64,000 nucleotides of DNA. Origin: an uncultured beta proteobacterium. GTDB lineage: Bacteria > Pseudomonadota > Gammaproteobacteria > Burkholderiales > SG8-39. Location of the stretch: the NCBI GenBank assembly GCA_903859155.1, contig CAIOLO010000116.1, forward strand, positions 124 to 64,123, written 5' to 3'. This document shows, piece by piece, positions 1,724 through 28,865 of this stretch (positions are counted from its first letter, which is position 1; every line of letters begins with the position of its first letter). The notes beneath the pieces are model-generated. The model did not search any database, was not told where the DNA came from, and worked only from the letters and a program-made list of their open reading frames with translations. Position numbers and translations under genes: made by a program.

Positions 1724-1727
1724 ATTC

Positions 1728-2675
1728 CTACACTCCCATTTCGGCGCGCGGATCGAAAGGCAGATCCTCGGCCATTTTCCGGTACGCGGCCGCCGCGGCC
1801 TCGTTGTTTGCGGGGGGCAGAGCGATCTGCAGCACCACGTACAGATCGCCCGCAGGATTGCCCGGCAGACCGCGGCCCTTGAGTCGCAGCTTGGTCCCGG
1901 CCCGGGACTTGGGCGGAATCTTGAGGTCCACCGACCCTTCGGGTGTCGGTGCCTTGACGCTGGCGCCCAATACCGCCTCCCAGGGCGCTACCGGGAGGTC
2001 CAGGTACAGGTCACGCCCGTCTGCGCGGTACAGACGGTGCGGGTGAAATTCCACTTGGAGATACAGGTCGCCTTGCTTGCCCTGCCCGATGCCCGGCCCT
2101 CCCTGGCCGGAGAGGCGGATGTGCTGCCCGGCGCGTATTCCTTTGGGAATGGCCACGCTGAGCACGCGCTCCCGGGTCACGATGTGACCTTGCGCATCGA
2201 GTTGCGGCACTTTCAGCGTGATGGTGCGCGTCGGACCGGTGTAGGAATCTTCCAGGTCGATTACCACCTTTGCGTGGTGGTCTTCACCCTGCATGTCGAA
2301 ATTGCCGCGGCCCGCCTGTCGCGGACCGGGGCCGGCACGGCCAAACAGGGTCTCGAAAAAATCACTGTGATCGCTTGCGCCGTCGCCGGGGGCGCCGCTG
2401 CCGCGAAATTCGAAGCCGTCATCCCAGCCGGGCGGCGGTTTGAACTCCTGGCCGCCGGTCCAGTTGGCGCCGAGCTGGTCATAGGCGGCGCGCTTCTCGG
2501 GTTCTTTCAGAACCTCGTAGGCTTCGCCGACTTCCTTGAAGCGTGCTTCGGCATCGGGTTCTTTGCTGACGTCAGGATGGAATTTGCGCGCAAGTTTGCG
2601 ATAGGCGCGCTTGACCTCATCCTGGGTGGCGTCGCGCTTGACGCCCATGACCTTGTAGTAATCCTTGAACTCCAT
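1728..2675 (-). CDS. cbpA: DnaJ-class curved DNA-binding chaperone CbpA
   Basis: MEFKDYY start, J-domain HPD motif, no zinc finger, DnaJ C-terminal domain. Confidence 0.92.
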   Translation of the reverse strand: MEFKDYYKVMGVKRDATQDEVKRAYRKLARKFHPDVSKEPDAEARFKEVGEAYEVLKEPEKRAAYDQLGANWTGGQEFKPPPGWDDGFEFRGSGAPGDGASDHSDFFETLFGRAGPGPRQAGRGNFDMQGEDHHAKVVIDLEDSYTGPTRTITLKVPQLDAQGHIVTRERVLSVAIPKGIRAGQHIRLSGQGGPGIGQGKQGDLYLQVEFHPHRLYRADGRDLYLDLPVAPWEAVLGASVKAPTPEGSVDLKIPPKSRAGTKLRLKGRGLPGNPAGDLYVVLQIALPPANNEAAAAAYRKMAEDLPFDPRAEMGV

Positions 2676-10067: not shown

Positions 10068-10290
10068 GTCCGCAAACCGCCGCAAAGCCGCAAAACGGCA
10101 CAGAACGAATTCCTGATTGTCGGCCACTTCCCCGTTTCGAGAACATATGACAATGCCAAGTTTTGAAGTCGGGGGAAAGATCCGGTGACAGGTGTTTCGC
10201 AGGACAGACACCCCCACGTACGGGTAATATCCCGCCGAATCGGGAAAGCATACCGATTCCATTTTTCGAAAATCCTTACGGAGGCAAGAC

Positions 10291-11112
10291 ATGAAGGCAG
10301 CGAATTTTTCGCGTCGTTCGGTACTTACGCTGGGACTGGCGGCCCTGGCCGCAGGGGTGTTCGCGCAGCAGCCCAAATTCGAACCCAGCGTGGGCCAGCC
10401 GGGGAAGGATGTGGTCTGGGTGCCGACTTCGCAGGTGGTGGTCGACACCATGCTGAACCTGGCCAAAGTCACCGCGCAGGACGTTGTCTATGACCTGGGC
10501 TCCGGAGATGGCCGAACGGTGATCACCGCCGCCAAGCGCGGTGCCCGTGCCAAGGGCATCGAATTCAACCCCGACATGGTGGAATTGTCCAAGCAGAACG
10601 CCGTCAAGGAAGGCGTCACCGCGCGCGCCACCTTCGTCAAGGCAGACCTGTTCGAGACCGATTTCTCCGAGGCGACCGTGATTACCATGTTTTTGTTGCC
10701 CAGCATCAATCTCAAACTGCGGCCGAAGATTCTCGACATGAAACCGGGCACGCGCGTTGCATCCAACTCCTTCACCATGGGTGAGTGGCAGGACGATGAA
10801 ACCGCTACCATGGACGCCAAGGATGGCTGCACCTACTGGTGCGTGGCGCATTTCTGGATCGTTCCGGCCAAGGTGCAGGGCAACTGGCACGTAGGCCAGG
10901 GCGAACTGGCCCTGAAGCAGGAGTTCCAGATGGTTTCCGGGACGCTGACCGCCGACGGTAAATCGGTGCCGGTTGCGGGCCGCCTGCGCGGTGAACAGAT
11001 CACCTTCACCGCCGGTGGCGCGGAATACACCGGCAAGGTCAACGGCAATTCCATGGACGGCACGCGCAAGGTCGGCAACAGCTCGGCTGCTTTCAGCGCC
11101 GCCCGCCGTTAG
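10291..11112 (+). CDS. Class I SAM-dependent methyltransferase with N-terminal signal peptide
   Basis: VWVPT, then motif I DLGSGDGR and GIE; N-terminus SRRSVL followed by a hydrophobic stretch and VFA. Confidence 0.85.
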   Translation: MKAANFSRRSVLTLGLAALAAGVFAQQPKFEPSVGQPGKDVVWVPTSQVVVDTMLNLAKVTAQDVVYDLGSGDGRTVITAAKRGARAKGIEFNPDMVELSKQNAVKEGVTARATFVKADLFETDFSEATVITMFLLPSINLKLRPKILDMKPGTRVASNSFTMGEWQDDETATMDAKDGCTYWCVAHFWIVPAKVQGNWHVGQGELALKQEFQMVSGTLTADGKSVPVAGRLRGEQITFTAGGAEYTGKVNGNSMDGTRKVGNSSAAFSAARR

Positions 11113-11226
11113 AACTGTCCTGGCGCGGGGCGTGTGTGGTGGCGCTCCCAGCCAGGTTTTCATTGACCGGGGAATCGCCGCTTCGCGGCGATTTTCATTT
11201 TCGTCCCTCGTCAGAACCGGAAAACC

Positions 11227-12396
11227 GTGACGCAAACAAGACTCAGCGCCCAGCTTGACGAGCTCGCACGGCGGGATCTCATCCGTTCGCGCCGCATTCT
11301 CGAGGGTCCGCAGGGCCCGCGCGTCGCCATCGGCGGGCGCGATTACCTCGCCTTCTGCAGCAATGACTATCTGGGCCTGGCCAACCACCCGCGCATCAAC
11401 GCGGCGGCCATCGCGGCGGTGCAGCGTTTCGGTGTCGGCGCGGGCGCCTCGCCCATGGTGACCGGGCACAATGCCCTGCACCAGCGCCTGGAGGAAAAAC
11501 TGGCCGCGTTCGCGGGCCTGCCGCGTGCTTTGCTGTTTCCGAGCGGCTACCAGGCCAATATCGGCGCGGTGACTGCGCTGGTCGGGCGCAGCGACGCGGT
11601 ATTTTCCGACAAACTCAATCACGCCTCGCTCATCGACGGCGCGCGCCTGTCGCGCGCCGAGGTGACCCGCTACGCGCATGGCAGCGTGGCGTCGCTGGCG
11701 CGCGCGCTCGCCGCCAGCGACGCCAAGGTCAAACTGGTTGCCACCGACAGTGTTTTCAGCATGGACGGCGACATAGCGCCGCTGCCTGAAATACTCGCGT
11801 TGTGCGAGCGTCACGATGCCTGGCTGCTGGTGGACGATGCGCACGGGTTGGGCGTGCTCGGCGCCGGCGGGCGCGGCGCGCTCGAGCACTTCGGCCTTGC
11901 CTCGCCGCGCATTGTCTATGTCGGCACACTGGGCAAGGCGGCCGGAGTGGCCGGCGCATTCGTCGCCGGCGCGGAAGAAATCGTCGAAACCGTACTGCAG
12001 CGCGCCCGCACCTATATTTTTTCCACCGCGGCGCCGGCAATGCTGGCGGCGGCGGTCGAAGAGAGCCTGGATGTCATGCGCGAGGAAGCATGGCGACGGG
12101 CGCATCTTGCCGAGTTGATCGCGGCGCTCAAAGACGGCCTCGCCGGCAGCGCGGCGCGCCTGGCGCCCTCCTCGACGCCGGTGCAGCCGCTGATCGTCGG
12201 GGCCAACGCCGCGGCGCTGGCGCTGGCGGAATTCCTGCGCGAGCGCGGCATCCTGGTGCCGGCGATTCGCCCGCCGACAGTCCCCGAGGGCACCGCGCGC
12301 CTGCGCATTTCGCTATCGGCGGCCCACAGCATCGATGACGTGCGGCAACTGGTGCAGGCGCTTCGCGCCATGCCCTCGCTGCCGCAGGGCGCTTAG
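11227..12396 (+). CDS. bioF: 8-amino-7-oxononanoate synthase
   Basis: FCSNDYLGLA, DKLNHASLIDG, SMDGD, DDAHG, GTLGKA. Confidence 0.95.
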   Translation: MTQTRLSAQLDELARRDLIRSRRILEGPQGPRVAIGGRDYLAFCSNDYLGLANHPRINAAAIAAVQRFGVGAGASPMVTGHNALHQRLEEKLAAFAGLPRALLFPSGYQANIGAVTALVGRSDAVFSDKLNHASLIDGARLSRAEVTRYAHGSVASLARALAASDAKVKLVATDSVFSMDGDIAPLPEILALCERHDAWLLVDDAHGLGVLGAGGRGALEHFGLASPRIVYVGTLGKAAGVAGAFVAGAEEIVETVLQRARTYIFSTAAPAMLAAAVEESLDVMREEAWRRAHLAELIAALKDGLAGSAARLAPSSTPVQPLIVGANAAALALAEFLRERGILVPAIRPPTVPEGTARLRISLSAAHSIDDVRQLVQALRAMPSLPQGA

Positions 12397-12409
12397 AGCA
12401 CTTCAGGCC

Positions 12410-13087
12410 ATGGCCCGGGGATTCTTTGTTACCGGCACCGACACCGGGGTGGGCAAGACCCTGGCGGCCTGCGCTCTGCTGCAGGCTTTTTCGTTGCGGG
12501 GATATTCGGTAATCGGCATGAAACCGGTGGCTGCCGGCAGCGACGATGGCAGACATGGCGACGTGGATGCGCTGGTCGCGGCAAGTACCGTGAAAGCCGC
12601 TGCCGACCTGGTCAATCCCTACGCTTTCGATCCGCCGATTGCCCCGCATATTGCCGCGCTGCAAGCGGGCGTCGACATCAGCCTGGCGCGCATCGCCACG
12701 GCGTATCGTCAGCTTGCCGCCTGCGCCGATGTGGTGGTGGTGGAGGGCGCCGGAGGATTCATGATCCCGCTCAACGCCGCGCAAACCGGTGCCGACCTGG
12801 CACGGCAGCTGGCACTGCCGGTGGTGCTGGTGGTGGGCATGCGCCTCGGGTGCCTGAGTCACGCGCTGCTCACGCGCCACGCCATCGCCGAGCAGGGTCT
12901 GGTTTGTGCGGGCTGGGTGGCCAACTGCCTGCAGCCGGCCATGCCGGTGCTCGAGGAGAACATCCGGACCTTGTCAGAGCGCCTCGAGGCGCCGCTGCTG
13001 GGCCGCATTCCGCATTACGACCGGCCCGCGGCGGTGACGGCGGCCGCCTGCCTGAATTTCGAGGCAATTGCCGGGAGCGCGCGATGA
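12410..13087 (+). CDS. bioD: Dethiobiotin synthase
   Basis: FVTGTDTGVGKT, MKPVAAG, VEGAGG, LGCLSH. Confidence 0.95.
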   Translation: MARGFFVTGTDTGVGKTLAACALLQAFSLRGYSVIGMKPVAAGSDDGRHGDVDALVAASTVKAAADLVNPYAFDPPIAPHIAALQAGVDISLARIATAYRQLAACADVVVVEGAGGFMIPLNAAQTGADLARQLALPVVLVVGMRLGCLSHALLTRHAIAEQGLVCAGWVANCLQPAMPVLEENIRTLSERLEAPLLGRIPHYDRPAAVTAAACLNFEAIAGSAR

Positions 13088-14388
13088 ACAATCGCGAGAT
13101 GCTGGAACGCAGCCTGCGCGCGGTGTGGCATCCATGCACGCAGATGAAACACCACGAGCTGTTGCCGCTGGTGCCGGTGGCGCGGGCCGAAGGGGCCTGG
13201 CTCATCGACTTTGAAGGCAACCGCATCCTCGACGCCATCAGCTCCTGGTGGGTGAACCTTCTGGGCCACGGCAATCCGCGCATCAACGCGGCGATTGTGC
13301 GTCAGCTGCAGACACTCGAACACGTCATGCTTGCCGGCTTCACGCACGAGCCGGTGGTGCGCCTCTCGGAACGCCTGGCCGCTCTCGCCCCGGGAAGACT
13401 GGGCCACTGTTTCTACGGTTCGGACGGCGCTTCGGCCATCGAGATCGCCCTGAAGATGAGTTTTCACGCCTGGCGCAACGCGGGTCGCGAGGCGAAAACC
13501 GGCTTCATCGCACTGGAGAACAGCTATCACGGCGAAACCCTGGGAGCGCTTTCGGTGACCGATGTGCCGCTGTTTCGCGACACCTATGCGCCGCTGCTGC
13601 GCAACTGCGCGCGCGTCCCCTCCCCTGATGCGCGCCTTGCCGAGCCCGGCGAGTCGGCGCGGGATTTTGCATTGCGCTGCGCGCGCGCGCTCGAGTCGCA
13701 CCTCGAAGCACACGCGCACCAGACCGCCGCACTGATTGTCGAACCCCTGGTGCAATGTGCCGGCGGCATGGCAATGCACGACGCGGAGTACCTGCGCCGC
13801 GCGCGTGAACTGTGCAGCCGCTTCGAGGTGCACCTCATTGCCGATGAGATTGCCGTGGGCTTCGGGCGCACCGGCACGCTGTTTGCCTGCGAGCAGGCCG
13901 GCATTGCGCCGGACTTCCTCTGCCTGTCCAAAGGCCTCTCGGGCGGTTACCTGCCCTTGTCGGTGGTGATGACCAGCGACAGCGTCTATGCGGCCTTCTA
14001 CGACGACAGCCTGGCGCGCGGCTTCCTGCATTCGCATTCCTATACCGGCAATGCGCTTGCCTGCAGCGCGGCGCTCGCGGTGCTCGACATCCTGGAAGAA
14101 GACCGCGTGATCGAGCGCAACCGCGCCACCGCGGCGCAGATCAACAAGGCCACGGCGCCATTGCGAGATCATCCGCAGGTCCGGAATTTCCGCAACCAGG
14201 GAATGATCTGGGCATTCGATGCCGCCGATGCGTCGCCGCAATTCGCCCGCGACTTTTTCAACCGGGCCGTCGCCTCCGGCGTGCTGTTGCGGCCGCTGGG
14301 GAACACGGTGTACTGGATGCCGCCTTACGTCCTTGCCGATGCGGAAATCGAATTTCTGGCGCGCTCGCTGGAACAGTTGATGCAATGA
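13084..14388 (+). CDS. bioA: Adenosylmethionine-8-amino-7-oxononanoate aminotransferase
   Basis: WHPCTQM, DAISSWW, YHGET, DEIAVGFGRTG, SKGLSGGY; ATGA overlap with bioD. Confidence 0.95.
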   Translation: MNNREMLERSLRAVWHPCTQMKHHELLPLVPVARAEGAWLIDFEGNRILDAISSWWVNLLGHGNPRINAAIVRQLQTLEHVMLAGFTHEPVVRLSERLAALAPGRLGHCFYGSDGASAIEIALKMSFHAWRNAGREAKTGFIALENSYHGETLGALSVTDVPLFRDTYAPLLRNCARVPSPDARLAEPGESARDFALRCARALESHLEAHAHQTAALIVEPLVQCAGGMAMHDAEYLRRARELCSRFEVHLIADEIAVGFGRTGTLFACEQAGIAPDFLCLSKGLSGGYLPLSVVMTSDSVYAAFYDDSLARGFLHSHSYTGNALACSAALAVLDILEEDRVIERNRATAAQINKATAPLRDHPQVRNFRNQGMIWAFDAADASPQFARDFFNRAVASGVLLRPLGNTVYWMPPYVLADAEIEFLARSLEQLMQ

Positions 14389-14479
14389 TGATGGCGCGCA
14401 GCGAAGATTCTCCGGATTGCCTACTATGGCGGTCGCGTCACCACGGTGACGGCGACCCTTGTTTTTTCGGAGCAGGCAC

Positions 14480-14857
14480 ATGACCACCTTCAGACTCGAG
14501 CACTTGCACGTCAAGACCAGCGATCCGGCTAAGACCGCGCGCTTCTACATGGAAACCCTGGGCGCGACGCTGATCGAGGCAAGCCACAACGACACTCGTT
14601 TTCGCGTCAACCTGCACGGGCTGACGCTCAATATCACCGACCATGTCGAGTACCAGAAGCGCCAGCAGAAATACGGCCTCGAACATCTGGCGGTGGAAAC
14701 CGACGACATGGACGGCACGCTGGCAAAATTGAAAAGCCAGGGAGCGATCGTGCTCGAGCAGATGATTTCGCCGATCCCGGCGCACCGCGGCGGGCGGATC
14801 TGTTTCCTGGAGGGGCCCGAGGGAATCCAGCTCGAATTGATCGAAATCATGCCTTGA
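14480..14857 (+). CDS. VOC/glyoxalase family protein
   Basis: EHLHVKTSD, LEHLAVETDD, FLEGPEGIQLELIE. Confidence 0.85.
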   Translation: MTTFRLEHLHVKTSDPAKTARFYMETLGATLIEASHNDTRFRVNLHGLTLNITDHVEYQKRQQKYGLEHLAVETDDMDGTLAKLKSQGAIVLEQMISPIPAHRGGRICFLEGPEGIQLELIEIMP

Positions 14858-14980
14858 AGGACAGAAAGCCGGGAAGCGCCGTTTCCGACTCGATGAAAAT
14901 ATTTCCCGACGGTCATGCGGGTGAGCCCCGGGTAAATGATTTTGTGCCTGAGGTTTCTTCGGCGGTTCCCAAGGGGCGAT

Positions 14981-16588
14981 TCAGGAACTGCAGGAGAGCA
15001 TCGAACACCCGGCTTTTTTCCTCGCCCACTCAGGACGCTTTGCCGCGTAGCGTTCGCGGCCGGGCTGCTCGTCGTAGGGCCGGCGCATGACATCGAGCAG
15101 TTCGTGGATCGGCGCGTCGTCGCCTTGGTGCGCGGCATCGATGGCCTGTTGCGCGAGGTAGTTGCGCAGCACGAATTTTGGATTGACGGCATTCATGCGT
15201 TCGCGCCGAACCGCTGCGGGCTCCTGATCTTCGCGCACCCGCGCTGCGTATTGCGCGAGCCAGCCGGTGAGCGCGGTTTCGTTCCGGTCGCGCAGGTCTT
15301 CGCGGTAAAAACATTCCTGCAGCAGGTCCGCCGAGGGATGGCCGAGGGGCATGTCGGCAAGCGCGCGATAAAAAATCGTCATGTCCATTTCGGCCTCGCG
15401 CATCAGGCGCATGGCCTGTGCGACCAGCGCTTCGTCTTGTTCACGCCAGGATTTGAGCCCGAACTTCGCCGCCGTCATGGCCTGCTGGCTTTCGGTGTAG
15501 ACCGCGACATAACGCTCCAGCGCGGCTTCGAGCGGCGCAGGCGAGGGGAAGAGGTCCAGCAGCGCGCTGCCCAGCCGCGCCAGATTCCACTGCGCGATAT
15601 GCGGCTGCTGGCCGAAGCGGTAACGGCGCTGGCCGGCATCGGTGGTGTTGGGGGTCCAGTCCGGATCGAAGTTGTCGATCCAGCCGTAGGGGCCGTAGTC
15701 GATGGTCAGGCCGAGGATGGACATATTGTCGGTGTTCATCACCCCGTGCACGAAGCCCACGCGCATCCAGTGGGCGACCATTCTGGCGGTGCGCTCGCAC
15801 ACCTCCTCGAACCAGCGGCGGCGGCGCTCGGCCGGGTCACCCGCGAGGTGGGGGAAATCGCGCGCGATGGTAAAGTCCACCAGCCGCTCAAGCAGCGTGT
15901 TGTCCTCGCGCGAGGCGAAGATCTCGAAATTGCCGAAACGGATGAAGGAGGGCGACACGCGGCACACCACCGCACCGGGTTCGTCGGCCGGATTGCCGTC
16001 GTAGAACATGTCGCGCAGCACCGCTTCGCCGGTGCCCACCAGGCACAGTGCGCGTGTGCTCGGTACGCCCAGATGGTGCATGGCCTCGCTGCACAGAAAT
16101 TCGCGGATGGAAGAGCGCAGCACCGCGCGGCCGTCGGCCGAGCGCGAGTAAGGCGTGAGGCCGGCGCCCTTGAGTTGCAGTTCCCAGCGCTCGCCCGCTG
16201 CGTTCACGGTTTCGCCGAGGGTGATGGCGCGTCCGTCGCCCAGTTGCCCCGCCCAGTTGCCGAACTGGTGGCCGCCATAGCACGCGGCGTAGGGCTGCAT
16301 GTCAGGGTGCAGGCTGTTGCCGCCGAAAATCTTGGCGAACTCCGGCGAGGCAATGTCAACCTCCGCAATGCCCAGCAAGGTGGCGACTTCCCTGGCGTGC
16401 GCGATGAGCCGCGGCGCGGCCACCGGAGTGGGCAGCACGCGCGACCAGCAGGCATTGCGTACCTGGCGCGGCTGCACGGTGTCCAGGGGATCGCCGGGCA
16501 GTTCCGCGACAAAGCGGTTGTCAAAGCGCAGGCCGCGCAGCACCCCGGGAGGGGCGCGATCCATGCCTGCGGGGGGTGTATTTTTCAT
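14981..16588 (-). CDS. selO: Protein adenylyltransferase SelO/YdiU (Cys form)
   Basis: [42 protein letters not shown]; C-terminus CSMLSCSS. Confidence 0.95.
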
Positions 16589-16669
16589 CGCGCAATTATG
16601 TCACGCGAGTACGTCCTGCCGTCCTCGGCGTACCAGGCAATGACCACCTGCACGGCACGGTCATTTTCT

Positions 16670-18403
16670 TCAGCCGGGCCTTCTCTCCAGTTCTTCCGTC
16701 CAGTTTCCGGGAAGCCTGATCGCTTTGGAGACGCGCAATCCCTGATGTCCGAACTGCGCGGCGATGAAGCTGCGGTTGCGGTCGGGCGAACCGGTGACCA
16801 CGATGTTGATTTCCCCGGGCCTGCGCACCACCGGCACGCGGCGATCGGGATCGTCACCTTGCGCAAACACCGCGGGCAGCCGGCCCAGGCGCACCGACTC
16901 GTGCAGGTTGAGTCCGAGTTGATGGCGATTGAGGTTGGCATCGGCGTCGCGCGCCGACACCGTGGCGTGTTCGAACAGGTAGCGCCTGACATCGTCCTTG
17001 CTGAAACCGTCACGCGCGATGATGCCCGCTATCAATGGCGTCAGGCCGATCACCGGCGTGACTTCGCCGCCGAAATGCTCCATGGGCACGAACATCTGCC
17101 CGCCCAGTTCGCGGCCGAATTCGTGTGCGATGACGCGCAGGTGTGCTTCGCCGTCGCCCTCGGAGAGGAAGCTGTGGCTGATGCTGTCGGCCGATTGCAC
17201 CGTGACGACGTTCTCGCCGGGGGCGAAGCCGCGATCGACGGAAAAGGGCTGCCACGGGCTGGCATCCTCGGCTTCGGCCACAACGGGATAGTAGTTGCGG
17301 CCGAAGGTGGCCATGTCGGTCTCACCCAAGCGGTAGCCGGCGATATTCACCAGCGCCAGGCGCAGGAAGCGGCTGACGGTGATATTGGCCTGGGTCTGCG
17401 GGCGCAGCACGCCCTGGCCCGAGTTGAAGCCCAGTTGCTTGGCGATCGGACCGTTGAGAATGATCAGGGGCGTCCAGCCCACGGTGCTGCCCACCTGCTG
17501 CACGCCGAAGCGCTCATCGGTAATCGCTTCGATGAGCGCAATCAGCACCGGCAGGTATTCGGGCCGGCAGCCGGCCATCACGCCGTTGACGGCGATTTTC
17601 CATATGGTGGCGGCGAGCCGGCGCGGCGCGAGGATGCCGATGACTTCGTCGCGGCGGCGGTCGGTGAGGCGCAGCATTGCTTCGACCTTGGCCACGGTGG
17701 GCGGAACGATGGGCAGCCCGTCGCCCCACACATTGGCGCGGAAATGTTCGTTCACTTCGTCGAGGTCGCCCTTGAGCACGATGCTCTCGGGCCGGCCGCT
17801 GGCCGAGCGTCCGGACTCCACCACCGCGCCTTGCGGTGCGCTGGTGAGTGCCGCGATCACCTCCTCGAGTATGCGTCCGGCGTATTCGTGGAGTTCATCG
17901 GGATTGAGCACCGCGATATTGGGCGGCGGACCCTCGACCATGCGGATGTGCGCAAGGCCCTCGGCGCGCGCCACCAGCCGCGTGGAAGTGGCGAAGCCCT
18001 TGCAGACGAAACCCACCGCGGGAATCCCGGCGATCTCCGTCCATGCCGTGGCCCGCGCAACTGCGGGCGCGCAGGTTCCTCAACCCCCGGCGGTGACAAT
18101 CGCCGCGTCGATGCCCTGTTCGCGCGCATATTCCGGCAGCGACAGATCGGGATAGTCGCCCCATTTGGCGTTGCGCCCCGGCATCAGCTTCACGCATTCG
18201 AGGCCCGGATAACGCTTGGCGATCCAGTCGGCGAGCGCCTCGAGCAGGATGTCGCCGTTGGTGAACACCGTCCAGATCAGGCCGATCTTCTTGCCTTGGA
18301 GGCGGGCAAGCGGCGGCGCGGAAGGAATCTTCTCCTTGCCCTGGCGCGTGGTGGTTTGCGCTTCGCCCAGGGGGCTGACGACTTCGTACAGGGGTTCGGT
18401 CAT
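16670..18403 (-). CDS. UGSC-family selenoprotein (577 aa, Sec108 in U-G-T-C) fused to a 'DGLPIVPPT' domain
   Basis: ORFs 18080-18403 and 16670-18016 share a frame. Reading TGA 18082-18080 as Sec gives VTAGG-U-GTCAPAVARATAWTEIAGIPAVGFV with no other stop; a hairpin follows the TGA. Confidence 0.85.
18041..18079 (-). promoter_or_regulatory. Putative bacterial SECIS element
   Basis: After UGA: 11 nt, stem GCCCGC/GCGGGC with loop AGUUGC, and lower stem CCUGC/GCAUGG. Confidence 0.75.
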
Positions 18404-18597
18404 GATTTGTCCTCAATCGATGCCGGGTCTTTTAGCACGCTGAGAAGGACCCCGCAATGTCGACGATCGCGCTTGTCGATCGCGCTTGTCGACCGCCCGG
18501 TTATGCCGAAGCCCTTGCAATCTCTGTACCATCGCTCCGTCATTCCGCTCATTGATCCCCACTGACGCCGGAATCCATCGAATTCGGACCGCAAGCG

Positions 18598-18954
18598 ATG
18601 CTGCTGCTATTCCTACTGATTGGTCTGCTCGCACTTGGCCTGCCGCTGATGCTGTTCGGCGACCCGCCGGCACCGCCGCCCCCGCCGGTAATTTCCAAGC
18701 CGGCGATAGTGCAGCCTGTGGCGGTGCCGCCGCCGATGGAAGCCCCGCGAGCTGGGGTCGAGGAAGAAACGCCACTCGACACTGCCGCGGCGCCAGCTGC
18801 GGAAGCCAAGGCAGCGCCCGCCACCACTGCGCCGGCAACAGCAGGTAATGTCGCCGTTTCCGGATTGCCGGAGGGTGCCAAGCTGCCGAACGATGCCGAA
18901 CTCCTCAAGGAACTGCAGCGACTGCTGGACGAACAGGCCAAGGTTGGCAAGTAG
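18598..18954 (+). CDS. Pro/Ala-rich protein with N-terminal membrane anchor
   Basis: Hydrophobic N-terminus, low-complexity linker, helical C-terminus. Confidence 0.55.
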   Translation: MLLLFLLIGLLALGLPLMLFGDPPAPPPPPVISKPAIVQPVAVPPPMEAPRAGVEEETPLDTAAAPAAEAKAAPATTAPATAGNVAVSGLPEGAKLPNDAELLKELQRLLDEQAKVGK

Positions 18955-19097
18955 AAAATTTTACCGGCAAAGGGAGCGTGGAGCTGGAAGCGCCAGAGCA
19001 AAGGGTGCGCGATGAAATCTATTGGCGGCTGGGGTTTCAGGAGGATTTGAAAGTTGCGCCAACCGGCGTGGTACGCAATATTTTGCATATTCGCCAT

Positions 19098-19122
19098 AAC
19101 ATGGCTAATATTTAGCCATGTT
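19098..19122. promoter_or_regulatory. Perfect palindrome overlapping the ATPase start codon (putative operator)
   Basis: AACATGGCTAA-TAT-TTAGCCATGTT (11-bp arms); the ATG at 19118 lies in the right arm. Confidence 0.6.
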
Positions 19123-20779
19123 TCGGCGATTTGTTATAAAAAGGCTTCAGGCCGCTCTGGCGGATACCAGGGTGGTGCTCCTCAATGGCGCCAGACAGAC
19201 AGGAAAAAGCACGCTAGTTCAAAAGCTTGCAACAGATCGTAATGGCCAGTACCTGACGCTGGATGACCCGGCTACCGCCGGGCTGGCGCGTTCCGATCCG
19301 TCCGCATTGGTCCGTGGGGCCGGCGCATTCATGGTGATCGACGAAGTGCAGCATGCACCCGAATTGTTTCCGGCGATCAAACGGATGGTGGACGCGGATG
19401 GTCGCCCCGGGCGCTTTCTACTGACGGGCTCCGCCAATGTGTACCTGCTGCCCCGTTTATCGGAGTCGCTGGCGGGGCGTATGGAAATCCTGCCGCTGCA
19501 TCCGTTGTCACAGGGGGAACTGGCCGGCGACGAGGTCAATCTGGTTGACGCGCTGTTTGATGGCGCGACGTGGCGGACGGGACCGTTGTCGCACGCGGGT
19601 TTGCCGGCAATGGATCGCGTTGGCGTCTGCGAGCGCGTGATCGCGGGGGGATTTCCCGAGGCTGTGGCACGCACGGCGGGCGAGCGGCGCGATGCCTGGT
19701 TTCGCAGCTACATCACCAGCCTGCTGCATCGGGATGTGCGCGACCTGGCGCATATCGATGGTTTGACCGACCTTTCCCGGCTGCTCTCGCTGCTGGCGGC
19801 TCGTTCGGGGGCTTTGATGAACATGTCGGAGGTTTCCCGCACCGCAGGTATTGCGCATTCCACGCTGCGACGCTATTTCGCGTTGCTGGAGGCCACCTTC
19901 GTTTTTCAGCCTCTGCCCGCCTGGTCCAACAACCTGGGCAAACGCTTAGTTAAATCACCCAAGATTCATTTGCTCGATTCGGGTCTGGCCGCGCACCTGC
20001 GTGGAGATGGGGAGGCGCTCGCGCTGGCGCAGTCGCCCAATCTGGGGCCGCTGCTGGAGACGTTTGTGGTGCAGGAAGTGCGCAAACTTCTTGCCTGGAG
20101 CCACCATGCGGCCACGCCCTATCACTTTCGCACTGCGACCGGGCAGGAGGTGGACCTGGTGCTCGAGGCGCCGGGCCAGCGCATCGCGGGCATCGAGGTC
20201 AAAGCCGCCTCCAGCGTGAATCAGGGTGATTTCGGCGGCTTGCGCGCTCTGGCTGAATCGGCAGGCGACAAATTTGTCGGCGGCGTGGTGCTTTATCTGG
20301 GTGAGCAATGCCTGCCGTTTGCTGAGAACCTATGGGCCTTGCCGATCTCGGTCCTGTGGGCTTCACTCGGGGATATGCCGATCTTGCGCTCGCCCTTGCC
20401 GGCATACGCCTCGAACGCGACGTCAAAGGCTGCAAATGTTGCTTGGCCACCGCTTGCGCAGAAATTGCGCATCTCCCGGCCCAGGCTTGAGGAGCTGTGC
20501 CGCAAATACGGCATCGCCAGATTGAGTTTGTTCGGCTCGGCGTCGAGAAATCAGTTGAGGCCTGACAGCGACGTGGACTTGATGGTCGATTGGCTGCCTG
20601 ATAGCCCCACTTCGTTATTCGACATGAAAACTATCCAGGACGAATTTGCGGCGGCGTTCGGCGGTCGCAAGGTGGACATTGTCACGCCGGAAATTTTGAG
20701 AGATCCGCTTCGCCGGGATTCCATCGTGCCGGATCTGAAGCTAATCTACGAGAATCGGGCGGACACCGAGAAGATATGA
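19118..20779 (+). CDS. AAA+ ATPase (AAA_14/DUF4143) fused to a C-terminal MNT nucleotidyltransferase
   Basis: Walker A GARQTGKS, Walker B IDEVQ, LLTGS, LAGR, KSPKIHLLDSG, EVDLV...IEVKA; then FGSASRNQLRPDSDVD (GSx10DxD) and RKVDIV. Confidence 0.85.
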   Translation: MFRRFVIKRLQAALADTRVVLLNGARQTGKSTLVQKLATDRNGQYLTLDDPATAGLARSDPSALVRGAGAFMVIDEVQHAPELFPAIKRMVDADGRPGRFLLTGSANVYLLPRLSESLAGRMEILPLHPLSQGELAGDEVNLVDALFDGATWRTGPLSHAGLPAMDRVGVCERVIAGGFPEAVARTAGERRDAWFRSYITSLLHRDVRDLAHIDGLTDLSRLLSLLAARSGALMNMSEVSRTAGIAHSTLRRYFALLEATFVFQPLPAWSNNLGKRLVKSPKIHLLDSGLAAHLRGDGEALALAQSPNLGPLLETFVVQEVRKLLAWSHHAATPYHFRTATGQEVDLVLEAPGQRIAGIEVKAASSVNQGDFGGLRALAESAGDKFVGGVVLYLGEQCLPFAENLWALPISVLWASLGDMPILRSPLPAYASNATSKAANVAWPPLAQKLRISRPRLEELCRKYGIARLSLFGSASRNQLRPDSDVDLMVDWLPDSPTSLFDMKTIQDEFAAAFGGRKVDIVTPEILRDPLRRDSIVPDLKLIYENRADTEKI

Positions 20780-22582: not shown

Positions 22583-25570
22583 CTACCCGCCTGTGCCGAA
22601 TGCGTGCGCGTACAACAGCCGCAGCGTGAAATCCGCTGTCTTGTCCGCCACCTTCGGAAAGCGTCTCCAGATGGCTGCGGCTTTCTCCTTGTCATCCGCC
22701 ACCAGGTAACCCGTCATGCCGGTGATGATGAGGTAGCGTTGCTGGGCATTGGAGTGCCTGAAGCGCGGCTCGAGCAGCTTCTCCGACAGCGCGGCCATGC
22801 GCGCCGCGTCGCGCTTGGCTACGGCGCGCAACAGGTCCAGCCACGCGGTCTGTGATTCACTGAGCCGCAGAGCGCACGGCGGCGCTGCGATGCGCTCCCA
22901 CATGGCCGTGGCATCGGCGGCGGGCAGGAGCGGGGTCATGGTGCGCGCCAGTTGCAGCAGGGAATGAAACCACAGGTCGATGCGCTCGGCGTCGCGGCAG
23001 TCGCCCGCCTGCAGCTTGGCGATCTCGAGATCCTTCTGCAGGCTGCTCGGGATGTCCTGCGGGCGGGGGCCGTTTCTGCCGAGGATGAAGTCGTGCGCGT
23101 AGCGGGCGTTGCGCATGGTTTCAATTTTTTCGAAGAAATCGCCGCCTGCATAGGAGGGCGGCGCAGCCCAGTCGGCGGCGCGGCCCTCGAGCATGGCGAT
23201 CACCGGCAGGTCGGTGCCGCCCAGTTCGGTGACCTCGCCTGCGTATTTCTGCAGATAGCGGAACTTCGCCGCGTTGAGGTCTAGGTAGGGCGCGTAATCG
23301 GAATTGACGGGCACCGCGAAGCTGGCGAAAAACGGTTCGAGTACTTTTCTGCCGCCGAGCCGTCGCAACTGCATGTCGCCCAGGGTCTGCACCTGCACGC
23401 GGCGCAGTTCGGCGGCGACGCCGGCGACGCTGCTCATGTCAGACAGCGGCCGCGCCAGCGTCTGCGGGTCGCCGCCGACGATGAGCAGGTCGCCGTTGGT
23501 GGCGGCGTAGACGACGTAGTCGGGAAACTCGCTGCCCAGCGCACCGAGCACCGAGGCGAGCAGGCTGGCATCGATCTCATAGAGCTGGAACCACTGCACC
23601 AGCACCCCGCCAGGCTTCAAGTAGCGCCGCGCGAGCTGGTAGAACTCGCGCGTGAACAGGCTCGACACGCCGCTCACCCAGGGATTGGAGGGCTCCGAGA
23701 CGATGATGTCGTAACGCCGGTTGTGCGTGGAAAAAAAGGTTTTTGCATCGTCGAAATTGATGTGGCTGCGCGGATCGGCAAACGCATTGGAGTTGATCGG
23801 CGCGAACATCTTTGACGCTTTCGCCATCAGCGGTTCTATTTCAATCGTATCCACCGCTTCCAGCGCCGCGTTGGCGAGCAGGGTGTGGGTGGTGAGGCCG
23901 GTGCCGATGCCGATGACCGCGACGTTCTTCGCATCGGGCTTGACCGCCATCGGCAGCGCGGCGGTGAGCACCATGGTGACTTCATCGGAGATTCGATCCA
24001 TGGCCGGATCCATCGCAATGGCGCCGTCGGATTTGCCGTTGGTGCGCAGGCTGCGGCCCTCGGGAAAATCCATCAGGCTCACCGTGGTGGTCTTGCCGTC
24101 CTCGTGCAGGATCAGTTTGGCCTCGCTGCTGCTGTAGACCTCGCCGCGGCGGAACACTCCCGAGGCCATCTTGTAGTTATCCAGCGGGAAGCCGGCCAGC
24201 ACCACGGCGAAGGCGAGCGTGGCGGCGGCGGCCGTCCCGGCGCGCAGTGCGAGCGGGCCGCCCACGCGCCACATCAGGATCAGGCCCAGCATGACATCCA
24301 GCGCGGCGCCCGCCGCGATCAGCCCTTTGAGGCCCAGCAGCGGCATCCCCAGGTGCGCGGCGAAGAAAACGCCGATGATGGATCCGAGCGTGTTCGATGC
24401 ATACACCGCGCCGATGCTTTTCTCGCCGTGGCCGAGGCGCAGCAGGCTGTAGGTGATGAGCGGCAGGGTCATGCCGGCGCAAAAGGTCGCCGGGAACATC
24501 ACCGCCAGCGCGATGCCGTGGCTGGAGGCGAGGAACAGCGCGTGGCCGGAATCGGTTTTCGCCAGTCCCTTGATGACGGCGGCCATGACTTCGAACATCT
24601 GTCCGTAAAGAGGGATGGTGGCCAGCGCAAGCAGTCCCATGGCAACCTGCACCCGGGCGAGGAAACGCATGGGGTCGCCGATGGCATCGATGCGCCGCTT
24701 CACCCACAATCCGCCCAAGGCCAGTCCGAGGATGAAGGCCGAGAGCATCAGCTCGAACGAATGCGTCGAGGCGCCCAGCACCAGGGAGAGCATGCGGATC
24801 CAGCCGATTTCGTAGATGAATGAAGCCGCGCCGGTGAGCAGTGCAATGGCCAGATACAGCGTGTAGGAGGCGCTGCCCGCCGGTGCCCGGGCCTCGACGG
24901 GTGCCGCACTCTCTGCTGCGGGACGGGGCTCGGCGCCGCGCGCCAGTATCCAGACGATGGCGGCCAGCGCCAGGTTCATGGCGCCGGCCAGCCCGATGGT
25001 GCCGGGCAGGCCGAGCTTTTCGATCAGCAGGAAACCGCTGGCGAGCACGCCGATCGCCGCGCCGAAGCTGTTGGTGAAGTACAGCATCGCCAGCGATCCG
25101 CCGGGGGCGAGCGGATAGCGGCGGATGAGGCCCGCGCTCATCAGCGGGAAGGTCATGCCAAGCAATATCGATTGCGGCAGGATCAGGAGCCCGGCCAGCG
25201 TCCACTTGGCGAGCGCTGCTCCCGTCGCGGTTCCCAGGCCGGGCAGCAGCGCGTCATAGGCCCATTGGGTGAGGGTGACGAAGGTCCCGTGGAAGACAAG
25301 CGCCGCAACCCCGATCAGCGCCTCGGTGACGGCGTAGCCCACCAGCAGGTTGGCCCAGCGCGGGCCGAAGCGGCTGCACAGCCAGGCACCGATTGCCATG
25401 CCGCCCATGAACAGCGCCAGCACCAGCGTCTGCGCATAGGCCGCGTGGCCCAGGAACAGTTTGAGATAGTGGCTCCAGATCGACTCGTAGATGAGCCCGG
25501 CAAAGCCGGATGCGGTGAACAGCAGAAAAAATACACCGCGCGGCACGCGGGAACGGAAGGGTTCGTTCAC
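22583..25570 (-). CDS. Fused multi-TM (MFS-like)/spermidine-synthase-like protein
   Basis: 995 aa; repeated SGFAGLIYE / TGAASFIYEIGW TM units, then VIGIGTGLT, IEIEP and DIIVSEPSNPW. Confidence 0.85.
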   Translation of the reverse strand: MNEPFRSRVPRGVFFLLFTASGFAGLIYESIWSHYLKLFLGHAAYAQTLVLALFMGGMAIGAWLCSRFGPRWANLLVGYAVTEALIGVAALVFHGTFVTLTQWAYDALLPGLGTATGAALAKWTLAGLLILPQSILLGMTFPLMSAGLIRRYPLAPGGSLAMLYFTNSFGAAIGVLASGFLLIEKLGLPGTIGLAGAMNLALAAIVWILARGAEPRPAAESAAPVEARAPAGSASYTLYLAIALLTGAASFIYEIGWIRMLSLVLGASTHSFELMLSAFILGLALGGLWVKRRIDAIGDPMRFLARVQVAMGLLALATIPLYGQMFEVMAAVIKGLAKTDSGHALFLASSHGIALAVMFPATFCAGMTLPLITYSLLRLGHGEKSIGAVYASNTLGSIIGVFFAAHLGMPLLGLKGLIAAGAALDVMLGLILMWRVGGPLALRAGTAAAATLAFAVVLAGFPLDNYKMASGVFRRGEVYSSSEAKLILHEDGKTTTVSLMDFPEGRSLRTNGKSDGAIAMDPAMDRISDEVTMVLTAALPMAVKPDAKNVAVIGIGTGLTTHTLLANAALEAVDTIEIEPLMAKASKMFAPINSNAFADPRSHINFDDAKTFFSTHNRRYDIIVSEPSNPWVSGVSSLFTREFYQLARRYLKPGGVLVQWFQLYEIDASLLASVLGALGSEFPDYVVYAATNGDLLIVGGDPQTLARPLSDMSSVAGVAAELRRVQVQTLGDMQLRRLGGRKVLEPFFASFAVPVNSDYAPYLDLNAAKFRYLQKYAGEVTELGGTDLPVIAMLEGRAADWAAPPSYAGGDFFEKIETMRNARYAHDFILGRNGPRPQDIPSSLQKDLEIAKLQAGDCRDAERIDLWFHSLLQLARTMTPLLPAADATAMWERIAAPPCALRLSESQTAWLDLLRAVAKRDAARMAALSEKLLEPRFRHSNAQQRYLIITGMTGYLVADDKEKAAAIWRRFPKVADKTADFTLRLLYAHAFGTGG

Positions 25571-25710: not shown

Positions 25711-26559
25711 ATGAAATCAGCGGGAGGTTCGCGGCGGTGGATTCCTTTTTGCGTCGTCTGGTCCGCGGCAGGGCTTCTCAGCGCCTGCCAGTCGGTGCAG
25801 ACTACGCAGCCCGGCGTGGTCGGGGTCGAGCGCAAACAGACCATGACCTCGTTGTTGCCTGCGAGCCAGGTCAACGGCGGCGCGGAAAAGGCCTATCAGC
25901 AGGTATTGCAGGACGCGCGCAAGAAAAACCAGTTGAACCGCGATGCCGCGCAGCTTGCCCGGGTGAAACAGGTTGCCGAGCGTTTGATTCCGGCGACCTC
26001 CGCGTTTCGCAACGATGCGCAGGGGTGGAAGTGGGAGGTCAACGTCATTACCTCGGCCGAAGTCAACGCCTGGTGCATGCCCGGGGGAAAGATCGCCTTC
26101 TATACCGGGCTGATCGAAAAGCTCCAGGTCAGCGACGGCGAGATGGCCGCGGTGATGGGGCATGAAATCGCGCATGCGCTGCGGGAGCACGGGCGCGAGC
26201 GTGCCTCGGCGGCGGTGCTGCAGTCCACGGTGCTCAATATCGGCGCGGCGCTGCTGGGTGTCAGCGGATCGGCGGTGGACCTGTCGAGCACCATTCTTGA
26301 TGTCACCTTCAATCTGCCCAACTCGCGTCAGGACGAGACCGAGGCCGACCGCATCGGTATCGAACTGGCCGCGCGTGCCGGATTCGATCCCCATGCCGCG
26401 GTGTCGCTGTGGCAAAAGATGAGTCAGCTGGGCGGTGGTCGCGGCCCGGCGTTTCTGTCCACGCATCCTTCGCCGGACAATCGAATCAAGGATTTGCAGG
26501 TTTATGCGGAGCGCGTCATGCCGCTTTATCAGGCGGCTCAGGCGGCGCGCAAACCCTAG
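25711..26559 (+). CDS. M48 family metallopeptidase (lipoprotein)
   Basis: Lipobox LSAC, NAWCMPGG, HEIAH, EADRIG, STHP. Confidence 0.9.
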   Translation: MKSAGGSRRWIPFCVVWSAAGLLSACQSVQTTQPGVVGVERKQTMTSLLPASQVNGGAEKAYQQVLQDARKKNQLNRDAAQLARVKQVAERLIPATSAFRNDAQGWKWEVNVITSAEVNAWCMPGGKIAFYTGLIEKLQVSDGEMAAVMGHEIAHALREHGRERASAAVLQSTVLNIGAALLGVSGSAVDLSSTILDVTFNLPNSRQDETEADRIGIELAARAGFDPHAAVSLWQKMSQLGGGRGPAFLSTHPSPDNRIKDLQVYAERVMPLYQAAQAARKP

Positions 26560-26644
26560 GCCGGCGCCCTTCGCGCTCAGGTATTGCCGCGAACGCGAGC
26601 TCATGCATCCGTTATAATCAAAGACTTACAGCAGGTTTTCGCCA

Positions 26645-28054
26645 ATGATCCAACAGACACTCTACGACAAACTCTGGGCCAGTCACGCGGTGCGCGCCGA
26701 AGACGACGGCACCACGCTGCTTTATATCGACCGGCACCTGGTGCACGAAGTTACCAGTCCCCAGGCCTATGAAGGCCTGAAGGTCGCCGGCCGCAGGGTG
26801 TGGCGCAAGGATTCCGTGGTGGCCACCGCCGACCACAACACGCCCACGGACCACTGGGAAGAGGGCATCAAGGATCCGATTTCGCGCCTGCAGGTGGAAA
26901 CCCTCGACGCCAATATCAAGGAATACGGCGCCAAGGTTTTTTTTCCGTTTCTGGACAAACGCCAGGGCATCGTGCACGTGATCGGGCCGGAAAACGGCTT
27001 CACTCTGCCGGGCATGACCGTGGTCTGCGGCGATTCGCATACCAGCACGCACGGAGCGTTTGGCTGTCTGGCCTACGGCGTGGGCACCTCCGAGGTCGAG
27101 CACGTGCTCGCCACGCAGACGCTGCTGGCCAAGAAGATGCAGAACATGCTGGTGCTGGTGGAGGGCGATATTCCCCGCGGCGTGACCGGCAAGGACATCG
27201 CCCTGGCGGTGGTGCGCCGCATCGGTACCGCCGGCGGTACCGGTTGTGCGGTGGAATTCGCCGGCAGCGCGATCCGCGCGCTTTCCATGGAAGGCCGCAT
27301 GACGCTTTGCAACATGGCGATCGAGGCGGGCGCGCGCGCCGGTATGGTCGCCGTGGATGACGTGACCATTGATTATTTGAAGGGCCGCCCTGATGCGCCG
27401 ATCGGTGCGACCTGGGACCGCGCCGTGGCGCACTGGCGCACCTTGCAGAGCGACCCTGGGTCGAAATTCGACCGCGTGGTGCAGATCGACGCGAGAGAAT
27501 TGAAACCTCATGTCACCTGGGGAACCTCCCCGGAAATGGTGGTGACCATCGATGACCGCGTGCCCGACCCCGACAAGGAAAAAGATCCGGTGCGTCGCGA
27601 GGGCATGGAGCGTGCGCTGGTGTACATGGGGCTCGAGCCCAATACCGCGATCAGGGATATCCGCATCGACAAGGTGTTCATCGGATCGTGCACCAACTCG
27701 CGCATTGAGGATTTGCGCGCCGCTGCCGGCGTGGTGCGCGGCCGGCGCAAGGCGGCCAACGTCAAGCTCGTCCTGGTGGTGCCCGGTTCCGGGCAGGTAA
27801 AGCTGCAGGCGGAGAAAGAAGGCCTGGATCGCATTTTCAAGGACGCGGGTTTCGAATGGCGCGAGCCGGGCTGCTCCATGTGCCTTGGCATGAACGCCGA
27901 CCGCCTCGAGCCGGGCGAACGCTGCGCGTCGACTTCCAATCGCAATTTCGAAGGACGCCAGGGCACCGGCGGGCGCACGCATCTGGTCAGCCCGGCCATG
28001 GCGGCGGCGGCCGGCGTGGCGGGATATTTTGTCGACGTTCGCGAGCTTCGCTGA
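26645..28054 (+). CDS. leuC: 3-isopropylmalate dehydratase large subunit
   Basis: [37 protein letters not shown]. Confidence 0.97.
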
Positions 28055-28075
28055 GCGGGATCCGGGAAGACAGTC

Positions 28076-28198
28076 ATGAGCAAACTTTTTTCCGGCATTG
28101 TGATTCTGCTGGTTCTGGCCGGTTGCAACACCATGCAGGGTCTGGGCAAGGATGTGAAGGCGGGCGGCGAGGCGCTGGAACGCGCTTCCAAGAAATAA
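28076..28198 (+). CDS. Entericidin A/B family lipoprotein (40 aa)
   Basis: [40 protein letters not shown]: lipobox LAGC and NTxxGxGxD motif. Confidence 0.9.
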
Positions 28199-28226
28199 TC
28201 GGAACCGGGACAGCCAGGAAACAGCC

Positions 28227-28865
28227 ATGCAGAAATTCACCGTACACAAGGGTCTGGTCGCGCCGATGGATCGCGCCAATGTCGACACCGATGCGATCAT
28301 CCCCAAGCAGTTCCTCAAATCGATCCGGCGCATCGGCTTCGGGCAGAACCTGTTCGATGCCTGGCGCTACCTGGATGAGGGCCAGCCGGGGCAGGACTGC
28401 AGCAACCGTCCGATCAATCGTGACTTTGTGTTGAACCAGTCGCGCTACAAGGGCGCCTCGATCCTCATCGCGCGCAAGAACTTCGGCTGCGGCTCCTCGC
28501 GCGAGCACGCTCCCTGGGCGCTGGGCGAATACGGCTTTCGCGCGATTATTGCGCCTTCGTATGGCGATATCTTTTTCAACAACTCGCTAAAGAACGGCCT
28601 GTTGCCCATCACGCTCGACGAGACGAAGGTGGACCGGCTGTTCAGCGAGGCCGCACCGTTTCCCGGCTATGCGCTGGAGATCAACCTCGAGGCGCAGGTG
28701 GTGATCAAGCCCGACGGTGATTCCTATCATTTCGACGTAGAGCCATTCAGCAAGTACTGCCTGCTGAACGGCTTTGACGACATCGGCCTGACGCTGCGCC
28801 ATGCAGCGACCATTCGCGCGTTCGAGGAAAAACGCAAAATCGAGCAGCCCTGGCTGTTCACTTGA
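28227..28865 (+). CDS. leuD: 3-isopropylmalate dehydratase small subunit
   Basis: [24 protein letters not shown]. Confidence 0.97.

Follow-up and report, generated by a model that had tools for sequence, protein, structure and literature searches.

A gene on the minus strand of a 64 000-nucleotide stretch of DNA from an uncultured betaproteobacterium (GenBank assembly GCA_903859155.1, contig CAIOLO010000116.1; the whole stretch is called the window below) is split in automatic annotation into open reading frames (ORFs) of 107 and 448 amino acids (aa). Comparison with its relatives indicates that the two ORFs are almost certainly one gene for a real selenoprotein, in which an in-frame UGA is read as selenocysteine (Sec). 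The N-terminal part belongs to the UGSC family, which is named after its Sec motif, and its Sec module is, by profile alignment, homologous to the C-terminal Sec module of the reductase subunits GrdB and PrdB. Nearly all UGSC modules of this bacterial order are joined to one and the same unnamed domain of ∼370 aa, either in a fusion or through a neighbouring gene. The statement as a whole, that the gene encodes one 577-residue cytoplasmic two-domain selenoenzyme with the reductase mechanism proposed below, is made with moderate confidence.

Reading frame and homologue survey

The ORF listing placed both ORFs (18080..18403, 107 aa, and 16670..18016, 448 aa, minus strand) in one frame. A sequence-only reading of the window had proposed that an in-frame TGA joins them into a 577-aa protein; its coordinates (16670-18403) were correct, although the strand was left unstated, and the join was borne out by read-through translation of 18403..16670. 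The product has 577 residues, and its sole internal TGA is codon 108 (window 18082..18080), flanked as in AAIVTAGG-U-GTC-APAVARATAWTEIAGIPAV. The one further TGA in frame is the terminal stop (16672..16670).

Homologues were collected with a word-indexed search, in which 8000 candidates were scored and 2411 relatives found; the best 120 of these 2411 were read more closely. Most of them (112 of 120) begin in the database just past the TGA position, typically at the first ATG or GTG that follows, which is the signature of gene callers that stop at Sec codons. The gene was predicted to be split by such programs, and the window's own 448-aa product is indeed among the TGA-truncated entries. The full-length relatives among the best 120 (eight proteins of 543–594 aa) all have Cys at residue 108, as GG-C-GTC.

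The DNA of relatives was also read directly. Eighty-three loci, taken from related genomes and from named public genomes that span many phyla, yielded 90 two-domain homologues, which include two probable duplicate pairs (L028/L035 and L032/L041). The codon for residue 108 is TGA in 74 of them, TGC or TGT in 15 and GGC (Gly) in one; Cys or Sec had been expected at this position, and both this survey and the eight full-length proteins agree with the expectation. Gut-type anaerobes (Bacteroidales, Kiritimatiellia, Lentisphaeria and Bacillota) account for most of the Cys forms, and a few others for the rest. The culturable species Vineibacter terrae and Nocardioides sediminis are among the carriers of homologues. 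Every match in the related genomes that covers the N-terminal domain contains a TGA, and no match restricted to the C-terminal domain does. The closest named loci are metagenome-assembled genomes (MAGs) of Burkholderiales, which fits the betaproteobacterial origin named in the sequence-only reading.

RNA hairpin analysis

Hairpins were tested position-specifically: the best hairpin starting 9–15 nucleotides (nt) past codon 108 was compared with those of synonymous recodings. Sec forms (n=70) scored 17.96 as native sequences versus 7.14 after recoding, with p≤0.05 in 38 of the 70. The Cys forms (n=15) scored 4.87 versus 4.61; p≤0.05 was reached by one of the 15, and nine have no such hairpin. 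The stems vary between subfamilies (GCCCGC/GCGGGC, GUCGUGGA/UCCACGAC, CCGGCCGC/GCGGCCGG and CCAUCAGC/GCUGAUGG), whereas the offset from the UGA is constant (+11 to +13) and the loops mostly contain GU. A spacing of 11 nt and a GU in the loop recall the selenocysteine insertion sequence (SECIS) of E. coli fdhF. The minimum free energy (MFE) of the whole region, likewise tested against synonymous recodings, discriminated weakly (mean z −1.28 and p≤0.05 in 26 of 74 Sec forms; −0.40 and 2 of 15 for Cys forms). No relevant family was returned by an Rfam scan of window positions 16000–19500, where the SECIS-like hairpin had no match.

Sec machinery and metagenome contigs

The genome of the window is 98.7 % complete and encodes selB (363.7 bits), selA (580.2 bits), selD (428.3 bits) and tRNA-Sec (60.2 bits), all above the curated cut-offs. 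The tRNA-Sec gene, with anticodon UCA, was found by the Rfam model and was not called by ARAGORN. The search for selA, selB, selC and selD that had been recommended as a check was thus positive throughout. Lake-water metagenome contigs from three studies, one of which may be the window's own source sample, cover positions 18080-18082 with no listed difference. No RNA data set is listed for the gene among public runs.

The proposal of a hidden selenoprotein is therefore supported by Cys at the TGA position, by a hairpin at the level of the family and by the Sec machinery. Trp or another non-Cys residue in homologues, a lack of selABC, and TGC or TGG in reads had been named beforehand as findings that would speak against it; the homologues, the genome and the metagenome contigs gave the opposite picture. 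For practical purposes, the alternation of TGA and Cys, the family hairpin, the machinery and the contigs together exclude that the gene is a pseudogene, that the TGA is a sequencing error or that the genetic code is altered. A broken gene or two separate genes, with the TGA as a real stop that arose by nonsense mutation, assembly error or natural splitting, would agree with the reporting of the 448-aa piece as a protein by gene callers, but is very improbable: relatives across phyla share the TGA at the same codon or replace it with Cys, the Pfam UGSC domain spans the TGA so that the 448-aa ORF would begin inside a domain, the contigs of three studies agree on the sequence, and all eleven UGSC modules of the genome contain exactly one TGA. 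A genome-wide reassignment of TGA to Trp or Gly, compatible as it is with the open frame alone, is hardly credible, since TGA is the stop codon both of the selenoprotein gene and of SelO next to it, the full-length homologues have neither Trp nor Gly at position 108, and the Sec machinery is complete.

Profile analysis of the N-terminal domain

Residues 8–187 matched the Pfam model PF24696 (UGSC) over model positions 2–171 of 172, spanning the TGA, with 84.6 bits (cut-off 25). Against the NCBIfam equivalog model NF041046, the whole protein scored 61.4 bits and its N-terminal domain 65, so that the cut-off of 125 bits was not reached; the assignment to the UGSC family made in the sequence-only reading consequently holds for the Pfam family and fails at the equivalog level. 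The motif is U-G-T-C in the window gene and UGSC, UGTC, UGGC, UGAC, UGNC or USTC in relatives. When 93 N-terminal domains were scanned singly, all matched UGSC_fam (NF041046; best E value 8.8e-44). The other families matched by more than two of them at E≤0.05 were PrdB (54), GrdB (27), GrdF (26), GrdH (19) and TIGR01918 (16). The window's own N-terminal domain matched PrdB with E 0.0072 and 15.8 bits (cut-off 300), and scores against the full GrdB and PrdB models fall well short of the respective cut-offs. When a whole genome was searched with TIGR01918, the N-terminal domain of a Lachnospiraceae Cys form was retrieved (E 1.5e-4).

A GrdB profile was built from seven clostridial grdB genes, which contain one TGA apiece, and was compared with the 93 UGSC domains. 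With hhalign, UGSC positions 84–193 aligned with GrdB positions 322–426 over 103 columns (probability 96.4 %, E 1.4e-9), with Sec and Cys each matched to their counterparts. The alignment also took in the E-x-x-G-I-P strand and a later P-x-P turn and helix. The Sec modules of UGSC and GrdB/PrdB are therefore homologous. The shared module comprises ∼100 residues: a strand, U-x-x-C, a helix, E-x-x-G-I-P, a strand, and the later P-x-P turn and helix.

The N-terminal domain had previously been described as thioredoxin-like. The sole supported outside relative of the Sec module is, instead, the selenoprotein B module of GrdB and PrdB. No thioredoxin family in Pfam or NCBIfam matched the window protein, and one of the 93 domains weakly matched a thioredoxin-type family (TIGR02187, E 0.022). 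Sequence and profile searches of the PDB with the N-terminal domain gave nothing significant (best match hydantoin racemase, E 0.0074). A protein atlas search started from a homologue (P0011) returned its own family only, and nothing once the UGSC clusters were excluded.

Variants of the motif were seen at several loci. Two Streptomyces-type MAGs (L096 and L104) carry Sec forms with the resolving Cys replaced by Ser (U-G-T-S and U-G-S-S), and a second copy in a Lachnospiraceae MAG (L063:5247-6884) has lost both residues and reads GGGASG; judged from their motifs, such copies may act in another way or lack activity. A Desulfatiglans MAG (L124; G045:C183, ∼1700–2490, plus strand) encodes a selenoprotein of another kind, which reads LLLFPV-U-PGC-...EEQGIPAAN, with the spacing from U to GIP found in UGSC and GrdB and 44.4 bits to TIGR01918, below the cut-off. 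From its sequence, it looks like another orphan branch of the selenoprotein B module.

C-terminal domain and pairing with UGSC modules

The protein was proposed to have two domains, the second marked by the motif DGLPIVPPT. This was borne out, and the second domain has no match in family databases: residues ∼205–577 were without a match in Pfam or NCBIfam at a threshold as lax as E 10, and 95 members of the domain family, scanned individually, had no family match common to more than one member. PDB searches with the domain were likewise without significant result (best match domain III of PntB, E 0.3). The family is nevertheless very large. Exhaustive searching with HMMER yielded 4317 clusters (50 % identity) at E≤1e-3, of which 762 reached E≤1e-30; they are spread over many phyla, with gut anaerobes included. 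Invariant residues are D228, P235, A271, G278, G318, R345, E377 and G538; the motifs W-x-D-G-L-P-x-x-P-P-T and N-G-V-M-A-G-C279 are also invariant or nearly so, as are G318-P319, N340, R345, N353, E377 and W384. In the alignment of relatives, no Cys of this domain other than Cys279 is conserved.

The domain occurs fused to UGSC (∼570 aa), alone (∼350 aa), as tandem duplicates (∼710 aa) and in one form (P0218) in which the UGSC domain is replaced by a C-terminal catalytic domain of ferredoxin:thioredoxin reductase (FTR) with CPC...CHC motifs. A second Sec residue within the domain had been considered for two matches with two TGA codons and was rejected: the second TGA is the terminal stop in one (L134), and the other (L133) has one TGA within the alignment.

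A Pfam UGSC search of the window's genome found 11 modules on eight contigs, each with exactly one TGA. Eight are fused to the C-terminal domain (motifs UGTC twice, UGGC once, UGSC twice and USTC three times), and the three stand-alone modules each adjoin one of three genes that encode the C-terminal domain only. Five related genomes contain 31 (G013), 19 (G030), 6, 2 and 1 TGA-bearing modules. Of the 70 modules in the six genomes together, 66 are linked to a C-terminal domain, 38 of them by fusion and 28 by a distance of no more than 1 kb; three of the four unlinked modules are on contigs with no listed match to the C-terminal domain, one of them at the first bases of its contig. Conversely, 28 of the 38 matches to the C-terminal domain only have a UGSC gene within 1 kb. 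Split pairs were also read directly at two loci (L109 and L111). The number of selenoproteins in such genomes is badly underestimated by standard gene calling.

In the lake metagenomes, the summed contig depth rises several-fold at window positions 17530-17591, which encode NGVMAGCRPEY, and loose ends are numerous there. The contigs aligned here include those of many further family members, from other organisms, which indicates that the family is common in these lakes.

Genomic neighbourhood

Genes within three positions of the family were collected from 101 loci with a heuristic gene caller and clustered. Thioredoxin-reductase-like genes of the Pyr_redox_2 family (∼300 aa) are present at 10 of the 101 loci, in all ten on the same strand and with the redox motif C-A-x-C-D, and immediately adjacent in nine. 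The window's genome has three such genes, two of them beside UGSC paralogues. Five loci (L055, L056, L057, L060 and L084) show the fused gene followed by a paralogue consisting of the C-terminal domain only (W-T-D-G-L-P-x-V-A-P-T) and then by a thioredoxin-reductase-like gene; this gene order suggests a heteromeric complex, which may form between the encoded proteins.

The commonest neighbour cluster, ahead of the Pyr_redox_2 genes in second place, is TctC (53 members at 32 loci). It was discarded as a functional clue and treated as background because the genome holds ∼369 TctC genes. This number of solute-binding (Bug-family) genes in 5.26 Mb is an extreme expansion of a kind typical of Burkholderiales. 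SelO, a protein adenylyltransferase (PF02696, 424 bits), is encoded 81 nt downstream of the window gene (14981-16588, minus strand), with no terminator-like site in the 81 nt between them. The SelO gene ends at a TGA stop and is thus a Cys form, not a selenoprotein. Its adjacency to the UGSC fusion was found in the window and two genomes of the same genus (L024 and L025) only, among the 101 loci, and was set aside as a clue on account of this limitation to one genus. At another locus of the window's genome (L118; G000:C9:71133-77916), a same-strand run comprises a fused UGSC paralogue, TctC, selA, a thiamine-pyrophosphate-dependent enzyme and then tRNA-Sec, with selB on contig C35.

The features of the window gene are collected in Table 1. 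An antisense open frame of 1209 aa (14936-18565, plus strand) spans SelO and the selenoprotein gene; its G+C contents by codon position (0.79/0.48/0.68) mark it as a spurious shadow ORF. Several further minus-strand ORFs of some length, at 10276-14514 and 25717-28333, are likewise shadows, in their case of genes on the plus strand. Elsewhere in the window, a divergently transcribed gene (19118-20779, plus strand) fuses AAA_14, DUF4143 and a nucleotidyltransferase domain, and a 995-aa protein with a spermidine-synthase-like domain is encoded at 22583-25570 (minus strand).

Table 1. Features of the selenoprotein gene, in window coordinates.
Feature	Position	Strand	Basis
Complete selenoprotein gene	16670..18403	−	577 codons and TGA stop (16670-16672), ATG at 18403; end-to-end alignment with Cys homologues of 543–594 aa
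UGA codon 108, read as Sec (U of UGTC)	18080..18082	−	Cys or TGA in homologues; metagenome contigs without difference
Cys111 (C of UxxC), presumed resolving Cys	18071..18073	−	≥90 % conserved in 93 N-terminal domains; aligns with Cys of GrdB UGTC
SECIS-like hairpin	18051..18068	−	Stem GCCCGC/GCGGGC, 6-nt loop AGUUGC, start 12 nt past the UGA
UGSC domain, residues 8–187	17843..18382	−	Pfam PF24696; residues ∼88–192 are the GrdB/PrdB-like Sec module
C-terminal domain, residues 205–577, unnamed family	16673..17791	−	Motifs W-x-D-G-L-P-x-x-P-P-T and N-G-V-M-A-G-C
Cys279 (NGVMAGC motif, C-terminal domain)	17567..17569	−	≥90 % conserved in two alignments of relatives
GAGGA Shine-Dalgarno motif (ribosome-binding site)	18410..18414	−	6 nt upstream of the ATG, read from the sequence

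Proposed mechanism and alternatives

The C-terminal domain would bind the substrate, probably a small molecule, as suggested by its conserved Arg, Asp and Glu residues and by the many paralogues per genome. The selenolate of U108 would attack the substrate, C111 would resolve the adduct into a selenosulfide, and NAD(P)H would re-reduce the selenosulfide via a thioredoxin-reductase-like flavoprotein, or via FTR in anaerobes. The flavoprotein is encoded beside paralogues, and the window copy would draw on the general reducing system of the cell. The mechanism as drawn is given an even chance at best. The many paralogues per genome further suggest a reductase family whose members may differ in their small-molecule substrates.

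Several observations weigh against this picture. The hairpin of the window gene itself is unremarkable in its G+C-rich DNA (p=0.13 versus synonymous recodings), the single-sequence fold of the region is not unusual (z=0.56), and neither is its whole-region MFE (p=0.58 versus synonymous recodings). The window copy has SelO, and no thioredoxin-reductase-like gene, as its neighbour; the neighbours of the family are diverse (MmgE/PrpD at eight loci, short-chain dehydrogenase/reductase at eight, phosphoenolpyruvate mutase/isocitrate lyase at four, and others) and indicate no single pathway or substrate. Ala stands in place of Cys279 in the FTR-B form P0218 and in half (four) of the genome's eight fused paralogues. 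The likeness to GrdB is confined to the Sec module of ∼100 aa, the C-terminal domain being unrelated to the rest of GrdB (hhalign probability 0.6 %). GrdE/PrdA (PF09338) was not found in the 98.7 %-complete genome by a search that found GrdE in three of three grdB genomes, and GrdA (PF04723) was not found in the same genome by a search without positive control. The protein is accordingly not a glycine or proline reductase, and nothing requires it to follow Grd-like chemistry.

A plain thioredoxin-like electron carrier is the main rival, in line with the thioredoxin likeness assumed in the sequence-only reading and in the 2008 paper on UGSC (PMC2398784). In this view, the UGSC domain would only shuttle electrons, by thiol/selenol-disulfide exchange, to a disulfide of the C-terminal domain (for example at Cys279) or to a client protein. 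The UxxC motif is present, thioredoxin-reductase-like neighbours would treat the UGSC domain as a thioredoxin-type acceptor, and Cys279 shows a conservation of at least 90 % in the closer relatives; the carrier is nevertheless judged unlikely. PrdB was matched by 54 of the 93 N-terminal domains versus a single weak thioredoxin-type match, with no thioredoxin family in Pfam or NCBIfam. The paralogues and the FTR-B form with Ala in place of Cys279 still keep a redox partner, so Cys279 cannot be a universal electron acceptor, and no other conserved Cys is at hand in the C-terminal domain.

A second rival takes the homology to GrdB and PrdB further. The partners of GrdB and PrdB are proproteins that undergo cleavage at a Cys residue. 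The C-terminal domain might then be an analogue of PrdA/GrdE, self-cleaved at Cys279, which follows Gly in a strongly conserved motif, to give a pyruvoyl group that would hold an amine for attack by Sec. Such a Grd/Prd-type reductase with a self-made pyruvoyl group is quite improbable, the C-terminal domain being unlike Gly_reductase or any other family and Cys279 being Ala in several Sec-containing paralogues.

The two-domain reductase proposed above can be placed in a wider frame. UGSC may be, rather than a free-standing thioredoxin-like protein, a portable Sec subunit of the GrdB/PrdB type that serves a large, undescribed class of reductases, with the C-terminal domain (at least 4317 clusters at 50 % identity) as the substrate-binding part, thioredoxin-reductase-like or FTR-like partners for recycling, and a multiplication to 11–31 copies in freshwater Burkholderiales. 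This generalisation is offered tentatively and is somewhat more likely to fail than to hold. If true, these genomes would rank among the most selenoprotein-rich of bacteria, and selenium-dependent reductive metabolism would be broad outside the classical anaerobes. The gene itself is an ordinary example of a selenoprotein cut in two by automatic annotation; its family context is worth more, as the linked domain, the homology to GrdB and PrdB, the reductase neighbours and the 11–31 copies provide a concrete, testable model for UGSC function.

Comparison with known systems

The UGSC-containing protein of Zhang and Gladyshev ranks among the most abundant selenoprotein families of ocean and freshwater metagenomes. 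UGSC has been listed as a selenoprotein of unknown function since 2005, from the Sargasso and Global Ocean Sampling (GOS) surveys on, and is still given as uncharacterised in reviews of 2022 and 2026 (PMC13188914 and PMC9312934). The GOS paper (2008, PMC2398784) suggests a thioredoxin-like fold and mentions UGSC fused to a conserved unknown domain, "Unknown_1", which also occurs alone (Fig. S1A). A fusion of UGSC to an unknown domain has thus been known since 2008, and the window gene is a further case of the known pattern. The passages on UGSC in PMC2398784, PMC13188914, PMC9312934 and PMC1976440 contain no link of UGSC to GrdB/PrdB or to thioredoxin-reductase neighbours. New here are the homology of the module to GrdB and PrdB, its near-obligate pairing with a domain family that is very large and lacks a model, the reductase gene as a recurrent neighbour, and the presence in single Burkholderiales-like genomes of 11–31 Sec-containing copies that gene callers truncate.

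The 187 N-terminal residues resemble the UGSC family in their nearly full-length match to PF24696, in the U-G-S/T-C motif, in the alternation of Sec and Cys and in the freshwater habitat. The window module differs from it in being fused to a domain of ∼370 aa, in reading UGTC and in scoring below the NF041046 cut-off; the fusion and this score show that the window protein is not an equivalog of the stand-alone UGSC form of ∼150 aa. The UGSC/Unknown_1 fusion (PMC2398784), in which Unknown_1 may correspond to the present C-terminal domain, shares with the present family the occurrence of fused and stand-alone forms; the C-terminal domain here, in contrast, comprises 4317 clusters at 50 % identity in many phyla, gut anaerobes among them.

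Low-molecular-weight thioredoxin reductases with their thioredoxin-type acceptors (TrxB/TrxA and AhpF/AhpC) are resembled by the Pyr_redox_2 proteins of ∼300 aa with C-A-x-C-D that are encoded directly beside UGSC family members on the same strand. They differ in that the presumed acceptor here is the UGSC module and not a thioredoxin, with electron transfer to it being inferred, and in that no such gene lies beside the window copy.

GrdB, GrdF and GrdH (protein B of glycine, sarcosine and betaine reductase) and PrdB (D-proline reductase) have a Sec module homologous to that of UGSC, with the pattern DAVI-x-T-x-x-U-G-T-C...E-x-x-G-I-P-V-V...P-H-P-L-G... and a following helix. In GrdB and PrdB, Sec is the nucleophile that cleaves a C–N bond and is re-reduced by the thioredoxin system. 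GrdB differs from the UGSC fusion in its UxxCxxC motif and in the position of the module, which stands at the C-terminus of GrdB behind an unrelated part of 320 aa.

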